From NCBI RefSeq assembly GCF_045037415.1, contig NZ_CP173438.1: 64,000 nt of DNA; one strand, given 5' to 3'. A program made the position numbers and the translations under genes. The notes beneath the pieces were generated by a model that worked only from the letters and a program-made list of their open reading frames with translations, ran no database searches and had not been told where the DNA came from. Origin of the DNA: Escherichia coli. GTDB taxonomy: Bacteria; Pseudomonadota; Gammaproteobacteria; Enterobacterales; Enterobacteriaceae. Positions 1,122-54,569 of the stretch are shown here, piece after piece (positions within the stretch are counted from its first letter, which is position 1; each line of letters begins with the position of its first letter).

Positions 1122-1910
1122 ATGCAAACGATTATCCGTGTCGAGAAGCTCGCCAAAACCTTCAATCAGCATCAGGCGCTGCACGCGGTTGATCTGAACA
1201 TTCATCATGGTGAAATGGTGGCTCTGCTTGGGCCGTCGGGTTCCGGAAAATCCACCCTTTTACGTCACTTAAGCGGTTTGATTACCGGCGATAAATCTGT
1301 CGGTAGCCATATCGAGCTGCTGGGCCGCACAGTCCAGCGCGAAGGCCGCCTGGCCCGCGATATCCGCAAAAGCCGCGCCAACACCGGCTACATCTTTCAA
1401 CAATTCAACCTGGTGAATCGCCTGAGCGTACTGGAGAACGTGCTGATTGGCGCGCTCGGCAGCACGCCATTCTGGCGAACCTGTTTTAGCTACTTCACCC
1501 GCGAGCAGAAACAGCGCGCGTTACAGGCGCTGACCCGCGTTGGCATGGTGCACTTTGCCCATCAACGCGTTTCCACACTCTCCGGCGGCCAGCAACAGCG
1601 TGTGGCGATTGCCCGCGCGCTGATGCAGCAGGCGAAGGTCATTCTCGCTGACGAACCCATCGCCTCGCTGGACCCGGAATCGGCACGCATCGTGATGGAC
1701 ACCCTGCGCGACATCAACCAGAACGACGGCATTACCGTGGTCGTCACGCTGCATCAGGTGGATTACGCCCTGCGCTACTGCGAACGCATCGTCGCCCTGC
1801 GCCAGGGGCACGTCTTCTACGACGGCTGCAGCCAACAGTTTGATAACGAACGTTTTGACCATCTCTACCGCAGCATTAACCGCGTCGAAGAGAACGCGAA
1901 AGCTGCCTGA
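1122..1910 (+). CDS. phnC: PhnC, phosphonate ABC transporter ATP-binding protein (262 aa)
   Basis: Walker [13 protein letters not shown] signature LSGGQQQR, Walker B ILADEP; AGGGAGG RBS. Confidence 0.95.
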
Positions 1911-1934: not shown

Positions 1935-2951
1935 ATGAACGCTAAGATAATTGCCTCGCTGGCCTTCACCAGCATGTTCAGCCTCAGCACCCTGTTAAAT
2001 CCGGCATACGCCGAAGAGCAGGAAAAGGCGCTGAATTTCGGCATTATTTCAACGGAATCACAGCAAAACCTGAAACCGCAATGGACGCCGTTCTTACAGG
2101 ATATGGAGAAGAAGCTGGGCGTAAAGGTCAACGCCTTCTTTGCCCCGGACTACGCGGGCATTATCCAGGGGATGCGCTTCAATAAAGTGGATATCGCCTG
2201 GTACGGCAACCTGTCGGCGATGGAAGCGGTGGATCGCGCCAACGGTCAGGTCTTCGCCCAGACGGTCGCGGCGGATGGATCGCCGGGTTACTGGAGCGTG
2301 TTGATCGTCAACAAAGATAGCCCGATCAACAACCTGAACGATCTGCTGGCGAAGCGGAAAGATCTCACCTTCGGCAATGGCGATCCTAACTCTACCTCCG
2401 GCTTCCTCGTCCCCGGTTACTACGTCTTCGCTAAAAACAATATCTCCGCCAGCGACTTTAAGCGCACCGTCAACGCCGGGCATGAAACCAACGCCCTCGC
2501 CGTCGCTAACAAGCAAGTGGATGTCGCCACCAACAACACCGAAAACCTCGACAAGCTGAAAACCTCCGCGCCGGAGAAGCTGAAAGAACTGAAGGTGATC
2601 TGGAAATCACCGCTGATCCCTGGCGATCCGATCGTCTGGCGCAAAAATCTTTCCGAAACCACTAAAGACAAGATCTACGACTTCTTTATGAATTACGGCA
2701 AAACGCCGGAAGAGAAAGCGGTGCTGGAGCGCCTGGGCTGGGCGCCGTTCCGCGCCTCCAGCGACTTGCAACTGGTGCCGATTCGCCAGCTCGCACTGTT
2801 TAAAGAGATGCAAAGCGTGAAGGACAACAAAGGGCTGAACGAACAGGACAAGCTGGCAAAAACCACCGCCATTCAGGCGCAACTGGATGATTTGGACCGC
2901 CTGAACAACGCGTTAAGCGCAATGAGTTCGGTGAGTAAAGCGGTGCAGTAA
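1935..2951 (+). CDS. phnD: PhnD, periplasmic phosphonate-binding protein (338 aa)
   Basis: N-terminal signal peptide [26 protein letters not shown]; follows phnC by 24 bp. Confidence 0.95.
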
Positions 2952-2955
2952 ATCG

Positions 2956-3040
2956 TAGGTCGGATAAGACGCCCGGCGTCGCATCCGACAATGTGCAGAC
3001 GTTGATGCCGGATGCGGTGCAAGCACCTTATCCGGCCTAC
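2956..3040. repeat. REP element pair between phnD and phnE
   Basis: GTAGGTCGGATAAGACGCCCGGCGTCGCATCCGACA and TGCCGGATGCGGTGCAAGCACCTTATCCGGCCTAC palindromes. Confidence 0.8.
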
Positions 3041-3055
3041 AGACCGGAGCCAAAC

Positions 3056-3835
3056 ATGCAAACCATCACCATCGCCCCACCCAAGCGCAGCTGGTTCTCG
3101 CTTCTGAGCTGGGCCGTTGTTATCGCCGTGCTGGTCGTCTCGTGGCAGGGCGCGGAAATGGCCCCGCTTACGCTGATTAAAGATGGCGGCAACATGGCGA
3201 CGTTCGCCGCCGACTTCTTCCCGCCCGATTTCAGCCAGTGGCAGGATTACCTCACCGAAATGGCCGTCACGCTGCAAATCGCCGTCTGGGGCACCGCGCT
3301 GGCGGTGGTTCTCTCCATCCCCTTCGGCCTGATGAGCGCTGAAAACCTGGTACCGTGGTGGGTCTACCAACCTGTACGCCGCCTGATGGACGCCTGCCGC
3401 GCCATTAACGAAATGGTCTTCGCCATGCTGTTCGTGGTCGCCGTCGGCCTCGGCCCGTTCGCTGGCGTGCTGGCGCTGTTTATCCACACCACCGGCGTGC
3501 TCTCCAAGCTGCTTTCCGAAGCGGTGGAAGCGATCGAACCCGGCCCGGTGGAGGGCATTCGCGCCACCGGTGCCAACAAGCTGGAAGAGATCCTTTACGG
3601 CGTACTACCGCAGGTCATGCCGCTGCTGATTTCCTACTCTCTCTATCGCTTCGAATCCAACGTCCGCTCGGCGACCGTCGTCGGTATGGTTGGCGCGGGC
3701 GGGATCGGCGTCACGCTGTGGGAAGCGATTCGCGGTTTCCAGTTCCAGCAAACCTGCGCCCTGATGGTGCTCATCATCGTCACGGTCAGCCTGCTGGATT
3801 TCCTCTCTCAACGGTTGCGTAAGCACTTTATCTGA
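3056..3835 (+). CDS. phnE: PhnE, phosphonate ABC transporter permease, intact reading frame (259 aa)
   Basis: ATG at 3056 with GGAG RBS (the longer six-frame ORF from 2993 starts inside the REP); multi-TM permease translation [19 protein letters not shown]...; uninterrupted, unlike the K-12 pseudogene as recalled. Confidence 0.88.
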
Positions 3836-3855: not shown

Positions 3856-4581
3856 ATGCACTTGTCTACACATCCGACCAGCTACCCAACACGCTATCAG
3901 GAGATAGCCGCAAAACTTGAGCAGGAGCTTCGTCAACACTACCGCTGCGGCGACTATCTTCCCGCCGAGCAGCAACTGGCGGCGCGCTTTGAGGTGAACC
4001 GCCACACCCTGCGCCGCGCCATCGACCAACTGGTGGAAAAAGGCTGGGTACAGCGCCGTCAGGGCGTCGGCGTACTGGTGCTGATGCGCCCGTTCGATTA
4101 CCCGCTCAACGCCCAGGCGCGTTTTAGCCAGAACCTGCTGGACCAGGGCAGCCATCCCACCAGCGAAAAATTGCTATCGGTGCTGCGCCCCGCCTCCGGT
4201 CACGTCGCTGACGCGCTGGGGATAACCGAGGGGGAGAACGTCATCCACCTGCGCACCCTGCGTCGGGTCAACGGCGTCGCGCTCTGTTTAATCGACCACT
4301 ACTTTGCGGACCTCACCCTCTGGCCGACGCTGCAACGTTTCGACAGCGGTTCGCTGCACGATTTTCTGCGCGAGCAAACGGGGATTACGCTACGACGCAG
4401 TCAGACGCGGATCAGCGCCCGTCGCGCCCAGGCCAAAGAGTGCCAGCGTCTTGAAATCCCGAATCTGTCGCCGCTGCTGTGCGTGCGCACCCTTAACCAC
4501 CGTGACGGTGAAAGCAGCCCGGCGGAGTACTCCGTCAGCCTGACGCGCGCCGACATGATTGAATTCACTATGGAGCACTGA
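3856..4581 (+). CDS. phnF: PhnF, GntR-family transcriptional regulator of the phn operon (241 aa)
   Basis: ATG at 3856 (track ORF begins at an upstream TTG); MHLSTHPTSYPTRYQEIAAKLEQELRQ... N-terminal HTH. Confidence 0.9.
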   Translation: MHLSTHPTSYPTRYQEIAAKLEQELRQHYRCGDYLPAEQQLAARFEVNRHTLRRAIDQLVEKGWVQRRQGVGVLVLMRPFDYPLNAQARFSQNLLDQGSHPTSEKLLSVLRPASGHVADALGITEGENVIHLRTLRRVNGVALCLIDHYFADLTLWPTLQRFDSGSLHDFLREQTGITLRRSQTRISARRAQAKECQRLEIPNLSPLLCVRTLNHRDGESSPAEYSVSLTRADMIEFTMEH

Positions 4582-5034
4582 ATGCACGCAGATACCGCGA
4601 CCCGCCAGCACTGGATGTCCGTGCTGGCGCACAGCCAACCGGCTGAACTGGCAGCCCGCCTGAACGCGCTGAACATCAACGCCGATTATGAGGTGATCCG
4701 CGCCGCTGAAACTGGCCTGGTGCAGATTCAGGCGCGAATGGGCGGCACCGGCGAACGCTTTTTTGCTGGCGACGCCACGCTCACCCGCGCCGCCGTGCGT
4801 CTGACTGACGGCACGCTCGGCTATAGCTGGGTGCTGGGGCGCGACAAACAGCACGCCGAACGTTGTGCGCTGATTGATGCGCTGATGCAGCAAAACCGCC
4901 ACTTTCAAAACTTATCAGAAACCCTTATCGCCCCGCTGGACGCTGACCGTATGGCACGCATTGCCGCGCGCCAGGCCGAAGTGAACGCCAGCCGGGTCGA
5001 CTTCTTTACGATGGTTCGCGGAGACAACGCATGA
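4582..5034 (+). CDS. phnG: PhnG, C-P lyase core complex subunit (150 aa)
   Basis: Start abuts the phnF stop; length and sequence match PhnG as recalled. Confidence 0.92.
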
Positions 5035-5615
5035 CCCTGGAAACCGCTTTTATGCTTCCCGTGCAGGATGCCCAGCACAGTTTTCGTCGCCTGTTAAAGG
5101 CCATGAGCGAGCCGGGCGTGATTGTCGCCCTGCATCAGCTCAAGCGCGGCTGGCAGCCGCTGAATATCGCCACCACCAGCGTGCTGCTGACGCTGGCCGA
5201 TAACGACACGCCGGTGTGGCTTGCCGCGCCATTGAGCAACGATATCGTCAATCAGAGCCTGCGTTTTCATACCAACGCGTCGCTGGTTAATCAGCCGGAA
5301 CAGGCGACCTTCGCGGTAACAGATGAGGCGATCTCCAGCGAGCAGCTCAACGCCCTTTCCACCGGCACTGCCGTTGCACCAGAAGCGGGCGCAACGCTGA
5401 TTTTACAGGTCACCAGCCTGAGCGGCGGGCGTATGTTGCGCCTCACCGGCGCAGGTATTGCCGAAGAACGGATGATCGCCCCGCAACTGCCAAAGTGCAT
5501 TCTTCATGAACTTACCGAGCGCCCGCACCCGTTCCCGCTCGGCATCGACCTGATCCTGACCTGCGGCGAGCGCCTGCTGGCTATTCCGCGAACCACTCAT
5601 GTGGAGGTGTGCTGA
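5031..5615 (+). CDS. phnH: PhnH, C-P lyase core complex subunit (194 aa)
   Basis: ATGA overlap with phnG; operon context. Confidence 0.92.
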
Positions 5616-6679
5616 TGTACGTTGCCGTGAAAGGGGGCGAAAAGGCGATCGACGCCGCCCACGCCCTGCAAGAGAGCCGACGCCGGGGCGATACTGATTT
5701 GCCTGAACTGAGCGTCGCCCAGATTGAACAGCAGCTTAACCTCGCGGTAGATCGCGTGATGACCGAAGGCGGTATTGCCGACCGCGAGCTGGCCGCGCTG
5801 GCGCTGAAACAGGCCAGCGGCGATAACGTCGAAGCGATTTTTCTGTTGCGCGCCTACCGCACCACGCTGGCGAAGCTGGCGGTCAGTGAGCCGCTCGACA
5901 CCACCGGGATGCGTCTCGAACGGCGTATTTCAGCAATTTATAAAGACATTCCCGGCGGCCAACTGCTTGGCCCCACCTACGACTACACCCATCGCCTGCT
6001 CGATTTCACCCTGCTGGCAAACGGCGAAACGCCAACGCTGACCACCGCTGACAGCGAACAGCAACCGTCGCCACACGTCTTCAGCCTGCTGGCGCGTCAG
6101 GGGCTGGCGAAGTTTGAAGAAGATAGCGGCGCACAACCGGACGACATCACCCGCACGCCGCCGGTTTATCCCTGTTCGCGTTCTTCCCGTCTACAACAAT
6201 TAATGCGCGGTGACGAAGGCTATTTGTTGGCGCTGGCCTACTCCACCCAACGCGGTTACGGGCGCAATCACCCGTTCGCAGGCGAAATTCGCAGTGGCTA
6301 TATCGATATATTTATTGTGCCGGAAGAGCTGGGATTTGCGGTGAACGTCGGCGAATTGTTGATGACCGAGTGTGAAATGGTCAACGGTTTTATCGACCCG
6401 CCGGATGAACCACCGCATTTTACACGCGGCTATGGGCTGGTGTTCGGCATGAGCGAGCGCAAAGCAATGGCGATGGCGCTGGTTGACCGTGCGTTGCAGG
6501 CACCGGAATACGGCGAGCACGCAACAGGTCCGGCACAGGATGAAGAGTTCGTGCTGGCCCATGCCGACAACGTCGAAGCCGCAGGCTTTGTTTCGCATCT
6601 CAAACTCCCGCACTACGTCGATTTCCAGGCCGAACTGGAGCTACTCAAACGTCTGCAACAGGAGCAGAACCATGGCTAA
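5615..6679 (+). CDS. phnI: PhnI, ribosyl-transferring C-P lyase subunit (354 aa)
   Basis: ATG at 5615 giving [13 protein letters not shown]...; track ORF starts at an upstream GTG. Confidence 0.92.
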   Translation: MYVAVKGGEKAIDAAHALQESRRRGDTDLPELSVAQIEQQLNLAVDRVMTEGGIADRELAALALKQASGDNVEAIFLLRAYRTTLAKLAVSEPLDTTGMRLERRISAIYKDIPGGQLLGPTYDYTHRLLDFTLLANGETPTLTTADSEQQPSPHVFSLLARQGLAKFEEDSGAQPDDITRTPPVYPCSRSSRLQQLMRGDEGYLLALAYSTQRGYGRNHPFAGEIRSGYIDIFIVPEELGFAVNVGELLMTECEMVNGFIDPPDEPPHFTRGYGLVFGMSERKAMAMALVDRALQAPEYGEHATGPAQDEEFVLAHADNVEAAGFVSHLKLPHYVDFQAELELLKRLQQEQNHG

Positions 6680-7517
6680 TCTGAGCGGCTACAACTTTGC
6701 TTACCTCGACGAGCAGACCAAACGCATGATCCGCCGCGCTATCTTAAAAGCGGTGGCAATCCCCGGTTATCAGGTGCCGTTTGGCGGACGCGAGATGCCG
6801 ATGCCCTACGGCTGGGGAACCGGCGGCATTCAGCTCACCGCCAGCGTGATTGGCGAAAGCGACGTGTTGAAGGTGATTGACCAGGGCGCAGACGACACCA
6901 CCAACGCCGTGTCGATTCGTAACTTCTTTAAGCGCGTGACCGGGGTGAACACCACCGAGCGCACGGACGATGCGACACTTATCCAGACGCGTCACCGCAT
7001 ACCCGAAACGCCGCTGACCGAAGATCAGATAGTTATCTTCCAGGTGCCGATCCCCGAACCGCTGCGCTTTATTGAGCCGCGTGAGACGGAAACGCGCACC
7101 ATGCACGCGCTGGAGGAGTACGGCGTGATGCAGGTGAAGCTGTATGAAGATATCGCCCGCTTCGGTCATATCGCCACCACCTACGCCTATCCGGTGAAGG
7201 TGAACGGGCGCTACGTGATGGACCCGTCGCCGATCCCGAAATTCGATAACCCGAAAATGGACATGATGCCCGCCCTGCAACTGTTTGGCGCGGGGCGCGA
7301 GAAGCGCATCTATGCCGTGCCACCGTTTACCCGCGTGGAAAGCCTCGATTTCGATGATCATCCGTTCACCGTCCAGCAGTGGGATGAACCATGCGCCATC
7401 TGCGGATCGACCCACAGCTATCTTGATGAAGTGGTGCTGGATGACGCCGGAAACCGCATGTTTGTCTGCTCCGATACCGATTATTGCCGCCAACAGAGCG
7501 AGGCCAAAAGCCAATGA
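6672..7517 (+). CDS. phnJ: PhnJ, C-P bond-cleaving radical SAM-like subunit (281 aa)
   Basis: ATG at 6672 overlapping the phnI stop; MANLSGYNFAYLDEQTKRMIRRAILKAV...; C-terminal CxxCxxC cysteine cluster (CAICGSTHSYLDE...CSDTDYC). Confidence 0.92.
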   Translation: MANLSGYNFAYLDEQTKRMIRRAILKAVAIPGYQVPFGGREMPMPYGWGTGGIQLTASVIGESDVLKVIDQGADDTTNAVSIRNFFKRVTGVNTTERTDDATLIQTRHRIPETPLTEDQIVIFQVPIPEPLRFIEPRETETRTMHALEEYGVMQVKLYEDIARFGHIATTYAYPVKVNGRYVMDPSPIPKFDNPKMDMMPALQLFGAGREKRIYAVPPFTRVESLDFDDHPFTVQQWDEPCAICGSTHSYLDEVVLDDAGNRMFVCSDTDYCRQQSEAKSQ

Positions 7518-8272
7518 ATCAACCGTTACTTTCGGTCAATAACCTGACCCACCTTTATGCCCCGGGCAAAGGCTTCAGCGATGTCTCTTTTGATTTATGG
7601 CCGGGAGAAGTTCTGGGCATTGTTGGGGAGTCCGGTTCCGGGAAGACCACGCTACTGAAATCAATTTCCGCCCGCCTGACACCACAGCAAGGGGAAATTC
7701 GCTACGAGAACCGTTCGCTGTACGCGATGAGCGAGGCCGACCGCCGTCGCCTGCTGCGCACCGAATGGGGTGTGGTGCATCAGCATCCGCTTGACGGCCT
7801 GCGCCGCCAGGTGTCGGCAGGCGGCAATATCGGCGAACGGTTGATGGCAACCGGAGCGCGTCATTACGGCGATATTCGCGCCACCGCGCAGAAATGGCTG
7901 GAAGAGGTGGAGATTCCCGCCAACCGGATCGACGACCTGCCGACCACCTTTTCCGGCGGCATGCAGCAACGTTTGCAGATTGCCCGCAACCTGGTGACGC
8001 ATCCGAAGCTGGTGTTTATGGATGAACCCACTGGCGGGCTGGATGTGTCGGTACAGGCGCGCCTGCTGGACCTGCTCCGCGGTCTGGTGATGGAGCTTAA
8101 CCTGGCGGTAGTGATTGTCACCCACGATTTAGGCGTCGCCCGTCTGCTGGCGGACCGTTTGCTGGTAATGAAGCAAGGGAAAGTGGTGGAGAGTGGGTTA
8201 ACCGACCGCGTGCTCGACGACCCGCACCATCCGTATACCCAGTTGCTGGTGTCATCGGTTTTGCAGAATTGA
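7514..8272 (+). CDS. phnK: PhnK, ABC-ATPase-like C-P lyase accessory protein (252 aa)
   Basis: Walker [10 protein letters not shown]; ATGA overlap with phnJ. Confidence 0.93.
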
Positions 8273-8278
8273 GCTGGT

Positions 8279-8361
<83 letters not shown>

Positions 8362-8382
8362 ACCCGAACCACGAGGCGAAAA

Positions 8383-9063
8383 ATGATTAACGTACAAAAC
8401 GTCAGTAAAACCTTCATCCTGCACCAGCAAAACGGCGTGCGCCTGCCTGTATTACAAGGCGCCTCACTCACCGTCAACGCCGGCGAATGCGTGGTACTCC
8501 ACGGCCATTCCGGCAGTGGAAAATCAACTCTGCTACGCTCGCTGTATGCCAACTATCTACCCGACGAAGGGCAAATCCAGATCAAACACGGTGATGAATG
8601 GGTCGACCTGGTCACCGCGCCAGCGCGCAAAGTGGTGGAGATCCGCAAAACCACTGTCGGCTGGGTAAGCCAGTTTCTGCGCGTCATCCCACGTATTTCG
8701 GCACTGGAAGTGGTGATGCAGCCGCTGCTCGATACCGGCGTACCGCGTGAAGCCTGCGCCGCTAAAGCCGCGCGTCTCCTCACCCGCCTGAACGTGCCTG
8801 AACGCCTGTGGCACCTTGCGCCATCGACCTTCTCCGGTGGCGAACAGCAGCGTGTCAACATCGCCCGTGGCTTTATCGTCGACTACCCCATTCTGCTGCT
8901 CGACGAACCTACCGCCTCGCTGGACGCTAAAAACAGCGCCGCCGTAGTGGAACTGATCCGCGAAGCCAAAGCCCGCGGCGCGGCCATCGTCGGTATCTTC
9001 CATGACGAAACCGTACGCGAGCAAGTCGCCGACCGCCTGCACCCAATGGGAGTCTCTTCATGA
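8383..9063 (+). CDS. phnL: PhnL, ABC-ATPase-like C-P lyase accessory protein (226 aa)
   Basis: ATG at 8383; Walker [10 protein letters not shown]; the longer track ORF from 8269 begins inside the REP. Confidence 0.92.
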
Positions 9064-10196
9064 TTATCAATAACGTCAAACTGGTGCTGGAAAACGAGGT
9101 GGTACACGGTTCTCTGGAGATGCAGGACGGCAAAATCCGCGCCTTTGCCGAAAGCCAGAGTCACCTGTCAGAAGCAATGGACGGCGAAGGCGGCTGGCTG
9201 CTACCGGGGCTGATTGAGCTGCATACCGATAATCTGGATAAATTCTTCACCCCGCGCCCGAAAGTTGACTGGCCTGCCCACTCGGCGATGAGCAGCCACG
9301 ACGCGCTGATGGTGGCGAGCGGCATCACCACCGTGCTGGACGCCGTGGCGATTGGTGATGTACGCGACGGCGGCGATCGGCTGGAGAATCTGGAGAAGAT
9401 GATCAACGCCATCGAAGAGACGCAGAAACGCGGCGTCAACCGTGCCGAGCACCGTCTGCACCTACGCTGCGAACTGCCGCATCACACCACGCTGCCGCTG
9501 TTTGAAAAACTGGTCGAGCGAGAACCCGTGACGCTGGTGTCGCTGATGGATCACTCACCGGGCCAGCGCCAGTTCGCCAACCGCGAAAAATATCGTGAAT
9601 ATTATCAGGGCAAATACTCGCTCACCGATGCGCAGATGCAACAGTACGAAGAGGAGCAACTGGCGCTCGCCGCACGCTGGTCACAGCCGAATCGCGAATC
9701 CATCGCCGCAATGTGCCGCGCGCGACACATTGCGCTCGCCAGCCACGATGACGCCACGCACGCCCACGTAGCCCAATCCCATCAGCTTGGCAGCGTGATC
9801 GCCGAATTTCCTACCACATTCGAAGCGGCAGAAGCCTCGCGCAAGCACGGCATGAACGTACTGATGGGCGCGCCGAATATCGTGCGCGGCGGTTCGCACT
9901 CCGGCAACGTGGCGGCCAGTGAACTGGCGCAGCTTGGCCTGCTGGATATCCTCTCTTCCGACTACTACCCCGCCAGCCTGCTGGATGCGGCGTTTCGCGT
10001 GGCCGATGACCAGAGCAACCGCTTTACGCTACCGCAGGCGGTGAGGCTGGTGACCAAAAACCCGGCCCAGGCACTGAATCTCCAGGATCGCGGGGTGATT
10101 GGCGAGGGCAAACGCGCCGACCTGGTGCTGGCGCATCGCAAGGGCAATCACATTCATATTGACCACGTCTGGCGTCAGGGTAAAAGGGTGTTCTGA
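9060..10196 (+). CDS. phnM: PhnM, amidohydrolase-family ribosyl-triphosphate diphosphohydrolase (378 aa)
   Basis: ATGA overlap with phnL; metal-dependent hydrolase-like motifs (LHTD, HD). Confidence 0.92.
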
Positions 10197-10753
10197 TGAC
10201 GGGAAAACTGATTTGGTTAATGGGTCCGTCCGGCTCCGGGAAAGACAGCCTGCTGGCGGAACTCCGCCAGCGGGAACAAACCCAGCTACTGGTAGCGCAT
10301 CGCTACATCACGCGTGATGCCAGCGCCGGAAGTGAAAATCATATCGCCTTAAGCGAGCGGGAGTTTTTTACCCGCGCGGGGCAAAATCTGTTGGCCTTGA
10401 GCTGGCATGCTAATGGTTTGTATTACGGTGTCGGCATTGAGATCGACCTCTGGCTGCACGCCGGATTCGACGTCGTGGTTAACGGCTCACGCGCCCACCT
10501 GCCGCAGGCGCGGGCACGTTATCAATCGGCACTGCTGCCCATCTGTTTACAGGTTTCGCCGGAGATCCTGCGCCAGCGCCTGGAAAACCGTGGCCGCGAA
10601 AACGCCAGTGAAATTAACGCCCGGCTGGCGCGCGCCGCCCGCTATACTCCTCAGGATTGTCTTACGCTCAATAATGACGGCAGCCTGCGCCAGTCGGTCG
10701 ACAAGCTGCTGACGCTGATTCATCAGAAGGAGAAACACCATGCCTGCTTGTGA
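10196..10753 (+). CDS. phnN: PhnN, ribose 1,5-bisphosphate phosphokinase (185 aa)
   Basis: P-loop GPSGSGKDS; overlaps the phnM stop. Confidence 0.92.
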
Positions 10754-11174
10754 GCTTCGCCCGGCTACGCAGTACGACACCGACGCAGTTTACGCGCTGA
10801 TTTGTGAGCTAAAACAGGCGGAGTTTGACCACCACGCGTTTCGCGTGGGGTTTAACGCCAATCTGCGCGATCCGAACATGCGCTACCATCTGGCGCTGCT
10901 GGATGGCGAAGTTGTCGGCATGATCGGCCTGCATTTGCAGTTTCATCTGCATCATGTCAACTGGATCGGCGAAATTCAGGAGTTGGTGGTGATGCCGCAG
11001 GCGCGCGGCCTGAACGTCGGTAGCAAGTTGCTGGCGTGGGCAGAAGAAGAAGCCCGCCAGGCCGGGGCCGAAATGACCGAGCTTTCGACCAACGTGAAGC
11101 GCCACGACGCGCACCGTTTCTATCTGCGCGAAGGCTACGAGCAGAGCCATTTCCGCTTCACCAAAGCGCTGTAA
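10740..11174 (+). CDS. phnO: PhnO, aminoalkylphosphonate N-acetyltransferase, GNAT family (144 aa)
   Basis: GNAT-like core; overlaps phnN by 14 nt. Confidence 0.9.
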
Positions 11175-11175
11175 C

Positions 11176-11934
11176 ATGAGCCTGATCCTCACGCTCACCG
11201 GCACTGGCGGCGCACAGGGCGTTCCCGCATGGGGCTGTGAGTGCGCGGCCTGCGCCAGAGCGCGGCGCTCACCGCAGTATCGCCGCCAGCCATGCAGCGG
11301 CGTCGTGAAGTTTAACGACGCGATCACCCTGATCGACGCCGGGCTGCACGATCTCGCCGATCGCTGGTCGCCCGGATCGTTCCAGCAGTTTTTGCTGACG
11401 CACTACCATATGGATCACGTGCAGGGGCTGTTTCCGCTGCGCTGGGGCGTGGGCGACACAATCCCGGTCTACGGTCCACCGGATGAGCAGGGCTGCGACG
11501 ATCTGTTTAAACATCCGGGCCTGCTTGATTTCAGCCACACGGTGGAGCCGTTTGTGGTGTTTGATTTGCAGGGGTTGCAGGTCACGCCGCTGCCGCTTAA
11601 CCATTCGAAACTCACTTTCGGCTATTTACTGGAAACGGCGCACAGCCGGGTGGCGTGGCTATCTGACACCGCAGGCCTGCCGGAAAAAACGCTGAAATTT
11701 TTACGCAATAATCAGCCGCAGGTAATGGTGATTGATTGCAGCCACCCGCCGCGCGAGGATGCACCGCGTAATCACTGTGATTTAAATACCGTGCTTGCGC
11801 TGAATCAGGTTATCCGCTCGCCACGGGTGATTCTGACCCATATCAGCCACCAGTTTGATGCGTGGCTGATGGAAAATGCACTGCCGTCGGGGTTTGAGGC
11901 GGGGTTTGATGGGATGGAGATTGAGGTGGAGTGA
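11176..11934 (+). CDS. phnP: PhnP, phosphoribosyl 1,2-cyclic phosphate phosphodiesterase, metallo-beta-lactamase fold (252 aa)
   Basis: HYHMDH metal-binding motif; last gene of the phn operon. Confidence 0.92.
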
Positions 11935-17708: not shown

Positions 17709-19317
<1,609 letters not shown>

Positions 19318-26820: not shown

Positions 26821-28968
26821 ATGAAAAAAGTCGTCACGGTTTGCCCCTATTGCGCATCAGGTTGCAAAATCAACCTGGTCGTCGATAACGGCAAAATCGT
26901 CCGGGCGGAGGCAGCGCAGGGGAAAACCAACCAGGGTACCCTGTGTCTGAAGGGTTATTATGGCTGGGACTTCATTAACGATACCCAGATCCTGACCCCG
27001 CGCCTGAAAACCCCCATGATCCGTCGCCAGCGTGGCGGCAAACTCGAACCTGTTTCCTGGGATGAGGCACTGAATTACGTTGCCGAGCGCCTGAGCGCCA
27101 TCAAAGAGAAGTACGGTCCGGATGCCATCCAGACGACCGGCTCCTCGCGCGGTACGGGTAACGAAACCAACTATGTAATGCAAAAATTTGCGCGCGCCGT
27201 TATTGGTACCAATAACGTTGACTGCTGCGCTCGTGTCTGACACGGCCCATCGGTTGCAGGTCTGCACCAATCGGTCGGTAATGGCGCAATGAGCAATGCT
27301 ATTAACGAAATTGATAATACCGATTTAGTGTTCGTTTTCGGGTATAACCCGGCGGATTCCCACCCAATCGTGGCGAATCACGTAATTAACGCTAAACGTA
27401 ACGGGGCGAAAATTATCGTCTGCGATCCGCGCAAAATTGAAACCGCGCGCATTGCTGACATGCACATTGCACTGAAAAACGGCTCGAACATCGCGCTGTT
27501 GAATGCGATGGGCCATGTCATTATTGAAGAAAATCTGTACGACAAAGCGTTCGTCGCTTCCCGTACAGAAGGCTTTGAAGAGTATCGTAAAATCGTTGAA
27601 GGCTACACGCCGGAGTCGGTTGAAGATATCACCGGCGTCAGCGCCAGTGAGATTCGTCAGGCGGCGCGGATGTATGCCCAGGCAGAAAGCGCCGCCATCC
27701 TGTGGGGCATGGGGGTAACCCAGTTCTATCAGGGCGTGGAAACCGTGCGTTCTCTGACCAGCCTCGCGATGCTGACCGGTAACCTCGGTAAGCCACATGC
27801 GGGTGTAAACCCGGTTCGTGGTCAGAACAACGTGCAGGGTGCCTGCGATATGGGCGCGCTGCCGGATACGTATCCGGGCTATCAGTACGTGAAAGATCCG
27901 GCTAACCGCGAGAAATTTGCCAAAGCCTGGGGCGTAGAGAGCCTGCCAGCGCATACCGGTTATCGTATCAGCGAGCTGCCGCACCGCGTGGCGCATGGTG
28001 AAGTGAGAGCGGCGTACATTATGGGCGAAGATCCGCTGCAAACTGACGCGGAACTGTCGGCAGTACGTAAAGCCTTTGAAGATCTGGAACTGGTTATCGT
28101 TCAGGACATCTTTATGACCAAAACCGCGTCGGCGGCGGATGTCATTTTACCGTCAACGTCGTGGGGCGAGCATGAAGGCGTGTTTACTGCGGCTGACCGT
28201 GGCTTCCAGCGTTTCTTCAAGGCGGTTGAGCCGAAGTGGGATCTGAAAACGGACTGGCAAATCATCAGTGAAATTGCCACTCGTATGGGTTATCCGATGC
28301 ACTACAACAACACCCAGGAGATCTGGGATGAGTTGCGTCATCTGTGCCCGGATTTCTACGGTGCGACTTACGAGAAAATGGGCGAACTGGGCTTCATTCA
28401 GTGGCCTTGCCGCGATACTTCAGATGCCGATCAGGGGACTTCTTATCTGTTTAAAGAGAAGTTTGATACCCCGAACGGTCTGGCGCAGTTCTTCACCTGC
28501 GACTGGGTAGCGCCAATCGACAAACTCACCGACGAATACCCGATGGTACTGTCAACGGTGCGTGAAGTTGGTCACTACTCTTGCCGTTCGATGACCGGTA
28601 ACTGTGCGGCACTGGCGGCGCTGGCTGATGAACCTGGCTACGCACAAATCAATACCGAAGACGCCAAACGTCTGGGTATTGAAGATGAGGCATTGGTTTG
28701 GGTGCACTCGCGTAAAGGCAAAATTATCACCCGTGCGCAGGTCAGCGATCGTCCGAACAAAGGGGCGATTTACATGACCTACCAGTGGTGGATTGGTGCC
28801 TGTAACGAGCTGGTGACCGAAAACTTAAGCCCGATTACGAAAACGCCGGAATACAAATACTGCGCCGTGCGCGTCGAGCCGATCGCCGATCAGCGCGCCG
28901 CCGAGCAGTACGTGATTGACGAGTACAACAAGTTGAAAACTCGCCTGCGCGAAGCGGCACTGGCGTAA
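26821..28968 (+). CDS. fdhF: FdhF, formate dehydrogenase H, selenocysteine at codon 140 (715 aa)
   Basis: Two in-frame six-frame ORFs (26821-27240 and 27289-28968) separated only by TGA at 27238-27240; N-terminal Fe-S cysteines (CPYCASGC) and molybdopterin oxidoreductase body. Confidence 0.95.
27241..27285 (+). other. SECIS stem-loop directing selenocysteine insertion at the fdhF UGA
   Basis: CACGGCCCATCGGTTGCAGGTCTGCACCAATCGGTCGGTAATGGC immediately 3' of the in-frame TGA; matches the fdhF SECIS as recalled. Confidence 0.85.
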
Positions 28969-35215: not shown

Positions 35216-35660
35216 TAGGCGCAGCAAACGTCGCATCAGGCATTGATGTCGGATGCGGCGTAAACGCCTTATCCGACCTACAAAAATCACGCCAAATCAG
35301 GCTATTGCGCTGTCTGACGTAGGCCTGATAAGACACGTCAGCATCGCATCAGACATTGATGCCGGATGCGGCGTAAACGCCTTATCCGACCTACAAAAAT
35401 CACGCCAAATCAGGCTATTGCGCTGTCTGGCGTAGGCCTGATAAGACGCGGCAAGCGTCGCATCAGGCGTTGATGTCGGATGCGGCGTAAACGCCTTATC
35501 CGACCTACAAAAATCACGCCAAATCAGGCTATTGCGCTGTCTGGCGTAGGCCTGATAAGACGCGTTAAGCGTCGCATCAGGCGTTGATGTCGGATGCGGC
35601 GTAAACGCCTTATCCGACCTACAAAAATCACGCTACATCAGGCTATTACTCAGTCAGGCA
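35216..35660. repeat. BIME/REP cluster: four tandem copies of a 114-124 bp composite REP unit
   Basis: GGATGCGGCGTAAACGCCTTATCCGACCTAC recurs at 35240, 35364, 35478 and 35592, each followed by GTAGGCCTGATAAGAC...GCGTCGCATCAG. Confidence 0.9.
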
Positions 35661-41021: not shown

Positions 41022-41690
41022 TGGCTCACCTCCCCGTATTTAAACGGTACGCGGTACAGCTTCGGTTTGGTGCCCAGCGCCAGCTTGTAGCGGTAAGTGG
41101 GCTTCTGGCGCAGCAGTTGCGAAATCTCACTGTTGGGATCGTCCAGATTGCCAAACGTCAGCGCCTTCGTCGGGCAAGCTTCAACGCACGCGGGCAGCTT
41201 ACCGGCCTGCAAATGGGTCTTACGGCAGAAATCGCATTTGTCCGCCGTCTTCGTGACCGGATGGATAAAGCGCACGCGGTACGGACAGGCGGCGATGCAG
41301 TACTGACAACCGACGCAGAGATCCGGATTAACATCGACAATCCCACTGGCAGCGTCGCGAAAAGACGCACCGGTCGGGCAGACGTCAACGCACGGCGCAT
41401 GATCGCAGTGCTGGCAAGACTTACGGAAGAAGCGATATTTCACATCAGGAAATTCGCCCTGCGGCTCGCTACGAATAATCGTCAGGCGCGAGACGCCTTC
41501 CGGCACCTTGTTCACTTTCCGACAAGCATCCATACAGGCGGTACAGCCGATGCATAACGACTCGTCATGCACCATGCCGTAACGCACCCCATTGATATTC
41601 AACGTTTTCGCCACCACGCGCCCTGCGGTGCCGCTGACGGCGGCCAGCACACCGACGCCGGTGAGAAACTGGCGACGAGAACCAGGTCAT
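41018..41690 (-). CDS. nrfC: NrfC, 4Fe-4S ferredoxin-type subunit with Tat signal; apparent +1 frameshift at codon 4 in this sequence
   Basis: Four CxxCxxCxxxCP clusters; the body frame encodes [20 protein letters not shown] but the ATG (41690-41688) is in a different frame; the span is 673 nt rather than a multiple of 3. Confidence 0.8.
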
Positions 41691-46093: not shown

Positions 46094-46207
46094 GTCGGAT
46101 GCGCTCCGACCTACATCTGGCAACGGCTGTAGGTCGGATAAGATGCGCCAGCATCGCATCCGACAACAAGCGCCGGATGCGGCGTGAATGCCTTATCCGG
46201 CCTACAT
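46094..46207. repeat. REP element cluster after acs
   Basis: GTCGGATGCGCTCCGACCTAC, GTAGGTCGGATAAGATGCGCCAGCATCGCATCCGAC and GCCGGATGCGGCGTGAATGCCTTATCCGGCCTAC. Confidence 0.85.
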
Positions 46208-53558: not shown

Positions 53559-54080
53559 AAGAAAACATCCCCTGAGAGTTTAATTTTCGTCAAGATGCGT
53601 GGCGGACAATCCCCTGCCAGCGAAACGTTATCTTCCTGCTCCAGGTTTGCGACAATTTGCTGCGTCGCAAAAAAAGCAAACGTTTAGCTCCGCGCATACA
53701 AAACGGGTGGTAAAAAAAGCAAACGATTATCCGGCGATCATAGCGGCTTTTTCAACCGAAGTTTGCTGCTTTTTTCTCTTTTATTGTCTTGACGATGAAA
53801 AACCAGGCAATTGATGCGCAAACGTTATCGTCGATGCGCAAGATTGCAGCGTTATCGAGCCGTATACCGTTCAGGATTGCGATAAAAAATCGTCTGAGAT
53901 GACAAAAATATTGCGGCTAAAAAGTGTACTTTTACACTGGCGAAGAAACGCCGGTAACATACAATTAAAGCATCAACACCAACCGGAACCTCCACCACGT
54001 GCTCGAATGAGGTGTGTTGACGTCGGGGGAAACCCTCCTGTGTACCAGCGGGATAGAGAGAAAGACAAAGACCGGAAAAC

Positions 54081-54111
54081 AAACTAAAGCGCCCTTGTGG
54101 CGCTTTAGTTT
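54081..54111. terminator. Hairpin at the 3' end of soxR
   Basis: AAACTAAAGCGCC-cttgt-GGCGCTTTAGTTT 13-bp stem overlapping the soxR stop codon. Confidence 0.6.
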
Positions 54112-54569
54112 TGTTCATCTTCCAGTAAGCGTGCGCCGGTACCTTCTTCTCCTAAGCGGTCGCCCGGGTTACGCAACGGGCAATCACTGCGCGAAAGGCA
54201 GCCACAACCAATACATCCATCCAGTTCGTCACGCAGCGCCACTAAGGTATGAATGCGCCGATCCAACTCTTCTCGCCATTGGGACGAAAGCTGTTTCCAC
54301 TCTTTCGCACTTAACGTATGCCCTTCTGGCAACACGCCAAACGCTTCACGAATGGTTGCGAGCGGAATGCCAATACGCTGAGCAATTTTGATAATTGCGA
54401 CATATCGCAACACATCACGTTTATATCGCCGCTGATTGCCGCTATTACGGATACTGGTAATCAACCCTTTGCTTTCATAGAAATGCAGCGCCGATACCGC
54501 CACACCGCTGCGTTTCGCCACTTCGCCGGGTGTTAGCAGCGCTTTAATGCGGGGTAATTTCTTTTCCAT
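54105..54569 (-). CDS. soxR: SoxR, MerR-family redox-sensing [2Fe-2S] transcriptional activator (154 aa)
   Basis: C-terminal [12 protein letters not shown] cluster motif; N-terminal MerR HTH. Confidence 0.96.

Follow-up and report, generated by a model that had tools for sequence, protein, structure and literature searches.

The classical contingency loci of bacteria, such as the tetranucleotide repeats of lic in Haemophilus influenzae and the pentanucleotide repeats of opa in Neisseria, typically carry from more than 5 to 30 repeat units, and their state is scrambled among close relatives. A second system is the phnE gene of Escherichia coli itself, for which the descriptions of the EcoB, EcoK+ and EcoK0 alleles are said to go back to Makino et al. 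1991 and Iqbal et al. 2004. The latter study reportedly observed that a repeat unit was re-inserted once selection had been removed, and the OFF form is said to have been regarded there as peculiar to K-12. In PMC6469041, PMC3463581 and PMC7566553, phn(EcoB) and phn(EcoK+) denote the functional phnE allele and phn(EcoK0) the cryptic one. [quoted passage not shown] A revertant without the 5'-GCTGGCGT at ORF positions 407-414 has been reported and revertants have been attributed to slippage (PMC6469041), and both PMC3463581 and PMC4759930 agree on the K-12 lesion and its revertants.

We analyzed a stretch of 64,000 nucleotides of E. coli DNA (contig NZ_CP173438.1), referred to here as the window, and compared its phnE gene with these alleles. 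The gene (3056..3835, + strand) encodes the phosphonate ABC transporter permease and was found to be intact at 259 aa on the evidence of its ORF, annotation, and profile matches, with an ATG at 3056 and a stop codon at 3833-3835. The CDS is annotated as phnE (WP_001296658.1) in E. coli strain SK1144. Its product scores 311.1 bits with TIGR01097, the NCBIfam PhnE equivalog (curated cutoff, 216.7), over positions 8-251 of the 252 in the profile, and the Pfam ABC-permease domain BPD_transp_1 spans residues 88-258 of the 259-aa protein. It was noted that the MG1655 annotation places the phnE start 51 nt upstream, at a position corresponding to ATG 3005 of the window and giving 276 aa, whereas the PGAP start is ATG 3056. 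Because ATG 3005 is contained in a REP-type element of the phnD-phnE spacer (2958..3037, - strand; Rfam naRNA4 match, 65 bits), and because the first 16 residues of the 259-aa form precede the PhnE profile alignment, the start at ATG 3056 is to be preferred.

Within this gene, two 8-bp units are arranged head-to-tail. Unit 1, GCTGGCGT (3461..3468, + strand; phnE ORF 406-413), is the unit that is doubled in K-12, and unit 2, GCTGGCGC (3469..3476, + strand), is a terminal variant unit that was present in all alleles examined. The units are identical at 7 of 8 positions and form a perfect period-8 run of 15 nt. Together they occupy ORF positions 406-421, or phnE codons 136-141 (AGVLAL), in a region that encodes FAGVLAL; the letters and the ORF are thus as given in a preliminary description of this DNA, which had reported a two-unit tandem within an intact 259-aa phnE. 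Near-tandems of 8 bp with at most one mismatch occur at 16 loci in the window, compared to 17 +/- 3.7 in shuffled sequences, and no enrichment was detected. An argument from repeat statistics was dropped because the near-tandem frequency in the window is at chance level; the repeat is statistically unremarkable, and its meaning comes only from orthology to the K-12 site.

Arrays of 1 to 11 units were modeled in the phnE gene of the window. In these models only arrays of 2, 5, 8, and 11 units were in frame, a single unit being out of frame, and the 5-unit array added 8 aa (...AGVLACWRAGVLAL...). Three units shifted the frame past residue 141 and led to a stop at 193 aa. Because BPD_transp_1 spans residues 88-258, the 3-unit product would lose the EAA coupling loop, which we take to be a 20-residue PhnE segment downstream of the repeat, together with the C-terminal membrane helices. 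The 3-unit genes are annotated as 'frameshifted' or as pseudogenes, and 'frameshifted' is the annotation of all expanded alleles inspected.

The neighbors of phnE in the window are yjdM, yjdN, phnC, phnD, phnF, and phnG-P, with phnC and phnD adjoining and the C-P lyase genes downstream. The genes for the ATP-binding subunit of the PhnCDE importer (phnC, 1122..1910), the periplasmic phosphonate-binding protein (phnD, 1935..2951), and the operon regulator (phnF, 3856..4581) are all on the + strand, as are the C-P lyase pathway genes phnGHIJKLMNOP (4582..11934), all of which are identical to those of SK1144. Over the aligned parts the window is approximately 99.99% identical to SK1144; no difference occurs before position 18876, so the phn operon is without differences, and all 14 phn genes of SK1144 are annotated without a pseudogene flag. 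From the intact ORF and operon we infer that phnE of the window is in the ON state.

Several other features of the window were recorded. The nrfC gene (- strand, near window position 41680) has one extra base (window ...GACGAGAACCAGGTCAT, SK1144 ...GACGAGACCAGGTCAT), which shifts the frame past codon 3, within the Tat signal peptide MTWSRRQFL. The exact variant was found in eight complete genomes (A1.S1.126; 439, 446, and 463; Esc2, 14, 25, and 26), and in the annotation of strain 439 nrfC is 'frameshifted'. It makes nrfC, a gene of the nitrite reductase operon, a genuine pseudogene specific to this clade, and it marks the close relatives of the window. In the acs-yjcH spacer, near window position 46189, SK1144 carries a 1,432-bp IS1397 within a REP/naRNA4 element (46132-46202), and the window is without it; IS1397 targets REP/BIME palindromes. 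The yjcO-gltP spacer (35217-35647) contains REP/naRNA4 matches at 35322-35391, 35435-35505, and 35549-35619, in a run of tandem copies of approximately 113 bp that are mutually 93-95% identical. The Hfq-binding sRNA sraL (53972-54112; 153 bits) and the selenocysteine insertion element of fdhF (SECIS_2, 27233-27287; 87 bits) were detected as expected for the region.

We then compared the window with K-12. In MG1655 (NC_000913.3) phnE is an annotated pseudogene, b4583. An alignment of the window, MG1655, and the clinical isolate ECOL-18-VL-LA-PA-Ryan-0026 contained a single length difference, at the repeat, where MG1655 and Ryan-0026 read GCTGGCGT-GCTGGCGT-GCTGGCGC from ORF position 406 and the window reads GCTGGCGT-GCTGGCGC. 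The preliminary description had attributed the cryptic state of K-12 phnE to one additional 8-bp copy; the alignment with MG1655 confirms an extra GCTGGCGT at ORF 406, in agreement with the literature, and the lesion is neither elsewhere nor of another type. Its account of Phn+ revertants arising by slipped-strand loss of a copy agrees with PMC6469041, PMC3463581, and PMC4759930, and it was right to call the site known rather than novel, this being the published K-12 switch site. Compared to a K-12 gene repaired to two units, phnE of the window has 30 nucleotide differences over 783 nt, synonymous with two exceptions, and the two proteins differ in one residue (I23L). It was also noted that the window and K-12 genes have no differences in 158 nt around the repeat (window 3376-3535, ORF 322-479), a patch that could be due to chance, constraint, or recombination.

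We sought to characterize the number of units across the species. A total of 5,426 complete E. coli genomes were searched, with unit counts referring to 5,394 chromosomes, using synthetic 110- to 134-nt queries in which 1, 2, 3, or 4 units were flanked by 51 nt on either side. A one-unit difference lowers identity to about 93%, and the counts were taken from BLAST identity bands. The counts describe a collection skewed to laboratory K-12 and clinical clones, in which each complete genome is a culture consensus, and low-frequency switching within a population would stay hidden. Two units were assigned by difference to approximately 4,370 genomes, and three units to approximately 1,009 of the 5,394 chromosomes (1000 at at least 99% identity and 9 at 95-99%, by band only). 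Exact matches to four units were found in 12 genomes, comprising VR50, EH10-18-47, EF7-18-51, FDAARGOS_1248, YZ22PE244, LR-71-1, three SW0716 genomes, 200112, TB4019, and TB4328. One genome each had 7 units (OkiPb01713, bovine; array at 652-707 of its locus) and 10 units (2013C-4974, human stool; array at 652-731 of its locus), both of which were read directly. No array longer than these was present among the 5,394 chromosomes, and the two are out of frame, as is every expansion observed (3, 4, 7, and 10 units). No genome had 5, 6, 8, or 9 units, and none had a full-length 1-unit allele; apparent 1-unit matches at 99% or higher were rejected as two-piece alignments to the 4-, 7-, and 10-unit alleles.

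The linkage of unit number to haplotype was judged from phnE alone. With the full 791-bp K-12 3-unit gene as the query, 999 records matched at 99% or higher, which places virtually all 3-unit alleles on one K-12-like haplotype. The repaired K-12 2-unit gene matched 62 records at 99% or higher and only 5 at 99.9% or higher, namely one MG1655 derivative, ETEC1732 and ETEC1734, and Z217-2 and Z217-4. The native 2-unit gene of the window matched 583 records at 99% or higher. A synthetic query that added a third unit to the gene of the window had no match at 99% or higher, its best matches being 2-unit genes at 99.0%. Outside the repeat, VR50 (4 units) was identical to Ryan-0026 (3 units) and one SNP from K-12. 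There was no difference between the 7-unit and the 10-unit strain, which are 22-23 SNPs away from K-12, and a search for a 3-unit allele on their flank haplotype found none.

These comparisons indicate that unit number tracks lineage. We infer that the 3-unit state would have arisen once or rarely and been inherited, with steps to four units and possibly back to two. Long arrays appear to change quickly, with instability rising with array length, and the 2-unit allele appears to be stable in nature on the haplotype of the window. The preliminary description had called the site hypermutable; the published evidence for this concerns the K-12 allele with three units, whereas the 2-unit allele appears stable, no variant having been seen among approximately 583 genomes of the same haplotype.

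We also examined which strains carry the 3-unit allele. In a systematic sample of 11 carriers matched by the K-12 gene, the 100% matches were laboratory K-12 derivatives (4/11), and the matches at 99.7-99.9% were pig, dog, and human isolates (7/11). Among the first 60 tied matches of the 3-unit query, 31 were laboratory strains and 29 were non-laboratory. Around half of the carriers or more are thus natural isolates, among which the OFF allele is common. A limited literature search, which is weak evidence of absence, found no reports of natural OFF alleles.

Some atypical phnE records were encountered in the same collection. Five phnE matches lie on plasmid-classed records, and NZ_CP083871.1 (E. 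coli NDM6, 18,002 bp) has a 3-unit phnE that is 99.9% identical to K-12; the plasmid-classed records may be misfiled chromosomal fragments or mobilized pieces. In strain SCPM-O-B-9504 (NZ_CP144930.1, 1171-1875) the reading frame of a 3-unit phnE is restored by an 83-bp deletion between the two copies of a 10-bp direct repeat, GCCCGTTCGC, which the K-12 haplotype carries at ORF positions 315 and 398. The net effect is -75 nt, leaving a 234-aa PhnE that is missing approximately 25 membrane-segment residues and is annotated as intact. Whereas the K-12 haplotype has the direct repeat that allows this deletion, the haplotype of the window has CAACCTGTACGCC in place of the first 10-mer and therefore cannot undergo the event.

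A degenerate pattern for the conserved peptide was used to assess whether the repeat extends beyond E. coli. It recovered at least 120 species with the same peptide, in a sample that left close Escherichia relatives outside; the species listed include Pseudomonas, Comamonadaceae, Nostoc, Vibrio, Aeromonas, and several Enterobacterales. Among the 120 species listed, none had two identical units (8/8), 4 had units matching at 7/8 positions, 35 at 6/8, and 81 at 5/8 or less. The taxonomically scattered 7/8 cases among the matches listed were Pseudomonas toyotomiensis, Cedecea sulfonylureivorans, a Buttiauxella MAG, and a Burkholderiales MAG. Of the eight column pairs, a single one is dictated by the amino acids, and the others are third-position choices. 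With one fixed column pair and most listed species at 6/8 or less, the possibility that the conserved peptide forces the repeat was ruled out. In O157:H7 strain 2571 a synonymous GGC->GGT change at phnE ORF 406-421 gives GCTGGTGT GCTGGCGC, with 6/8 identity, and this interrupted repeat is predicted to be still less prone to slippage. Across the at least 120 species and the O157:H7 SNP, we found no indication that selection maintains the tract in related taxa. Rather than resembling a conserved switch, the repeat is a by-product, specific to the lineage, of how codons are chosen in a conserved membrane-helix motif.

We consider it very probable that phnE of the window is the wild-type, in-frame ON allele and is stable, that the 3-unit OFF state is inherited, and that the tract is a by-product of codon choice. 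Following the literature on K-12, the nascent strand would mispair by one 8-bp unit during replication, and the gain of a unit (+8 nt) would shift the frame past residue 141, giving the stop at 193 aa. The truncated PhnE, presumably without the coupling loop and C-terminal helices, would leave PhnCDE unable to import phosphonates, and the loss of a unit would restore the frame. The survey suggests that two units would be near the minimum for slippage and effectively stable in the lineage of the window. It also suggests that the 3-unit OFF allele would be the inherited state of one K-12-like lineage, with instability growing with length.

An alternative is that active phase variation also operates in the strain of the window, the ON state being only the momentary majority in the sequenced culture. 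The frequent slippage and easily selected revertants of K-12 in the literature (PMC6469041, PMC4759930) are compatible with this, as are the natural lengths of 2, 3, 4, 7, and 10 units. Re-insertion of the unit, as said to have been seen by Iqbal et al. 2004, points the same way. We nevertheless regard this alternative as improbable, given that no expansion occurred among approximately 583 genomes of the haplotype of the window and the approximately 4,370 genomes that lack the K-12-like haplotype had only two expanded alleles. Moreover, the K-12 haplotype had 999 records with three units against 5 repaired 2-unit matches at 99.9% or higher, and the periodic sequence in a 2-unit array is no longer than 15 nt. 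A coincidence of codon usage without any switching, with K-12 as a one-off duplication, would account for near-tandems at chance frequency in the window and for a peptide that is conserved in Proteobacteria and cyanobacteria when the DNA repeat, among the matches listed, is not. It would also fit the O157:H7 synonymous change, which degrades the repeat without consequence. Expansion has, however, recurred, with four units on the natural 3-unit haplotype and 7 and 10 units on a separate one, and laboratory revertants repeatedly drop exactly one unit. The tract is therefore slippage-prone once expanded, and we give pure coincidence as little credence as ongoing variation in this strain. Short tandem repeats are sometimes miscalled in assemblies, and a true 3-unit tract could have been collapsed to two. 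Yet a tract of 16 or 24 nt is far below any read length, the 2-unit allele is present in approximately 4,370 independent complete genomes (583 on the haplotype of the window at 99% or higher), and longer arrays of other strains (3, 4, 7, and 10 units) were resolved by assemblers, which makes the chance of such an artifact negligible.

The functional 2-unit allele, while correctly identified, is ordinary and already known, and the population picture alone is mildly new. Carriers of three units make up about 19% of complete genomes, and the natural ones come from humans, animals, food, or water. All expansions are out of frame and no in-frame 5- or 8-unit allele was found, which would suggest that the expanded lineages tolerate losing PhnCDE import or that the loss is favored in them. 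The chances seem evenly balanced that the cryptic 3-unit phnE has become fixed in a large natural lineage, behaving as a length-dependent microsatellite, with PhnCDE loss tolerated or favored there. If this reading is true, lineages like that of the window keep PhnCDE import. If Iqbal et al. did regard the OFF form as a K-12 peculiarity, the survey also updates that view. As judged from its sequence, the strain of the window is phnE-intact and probably uses phosphonates, unlike K-12, and K-12 metabolic models should not be transferred to it blindly. The OFF allele is present in about one in five complete E. coli genomes, and counting GCTGGCGT units predicts the state. Since PhnCDE imports orthophosphate as well (PMC6469041) and the phn operon influences the fosfomycin response (PMC7566553), the state of the allele is physiologically consequential.

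Set against the known systems, the locus resembles contingency loci in having a tandem within the ORF in which unit number sets the frame, in changing by slipped-strand events, and in occurring naturally with 2, 3, 4, 7, and 10 units. It differs from them in that phnE of the window has only two units, in the 8-bp length of the unit, and in that the repeat is not conserved beyond E. coli although the peptide is. Its state also follows lineage and is not decoupled from phylogeny, with the exception of the 7- and 10-unit arrays on identical haplotypes. With other permeases of the PhnE/PtxC family (TIGR01097; BPD_transp_1) the PhnE of the window shares the equivalog match, the phnCDE context, and the conserved motif, but in 116 of the 120 species listed the AGVLAL tandem has 6/8 identity or less, without a slippage-prone tract. 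With the functional phn(EcoB)/phn(EcoK+) allele the window has in common the same gene, the same ORF position (406-421), and the same unit sequence.
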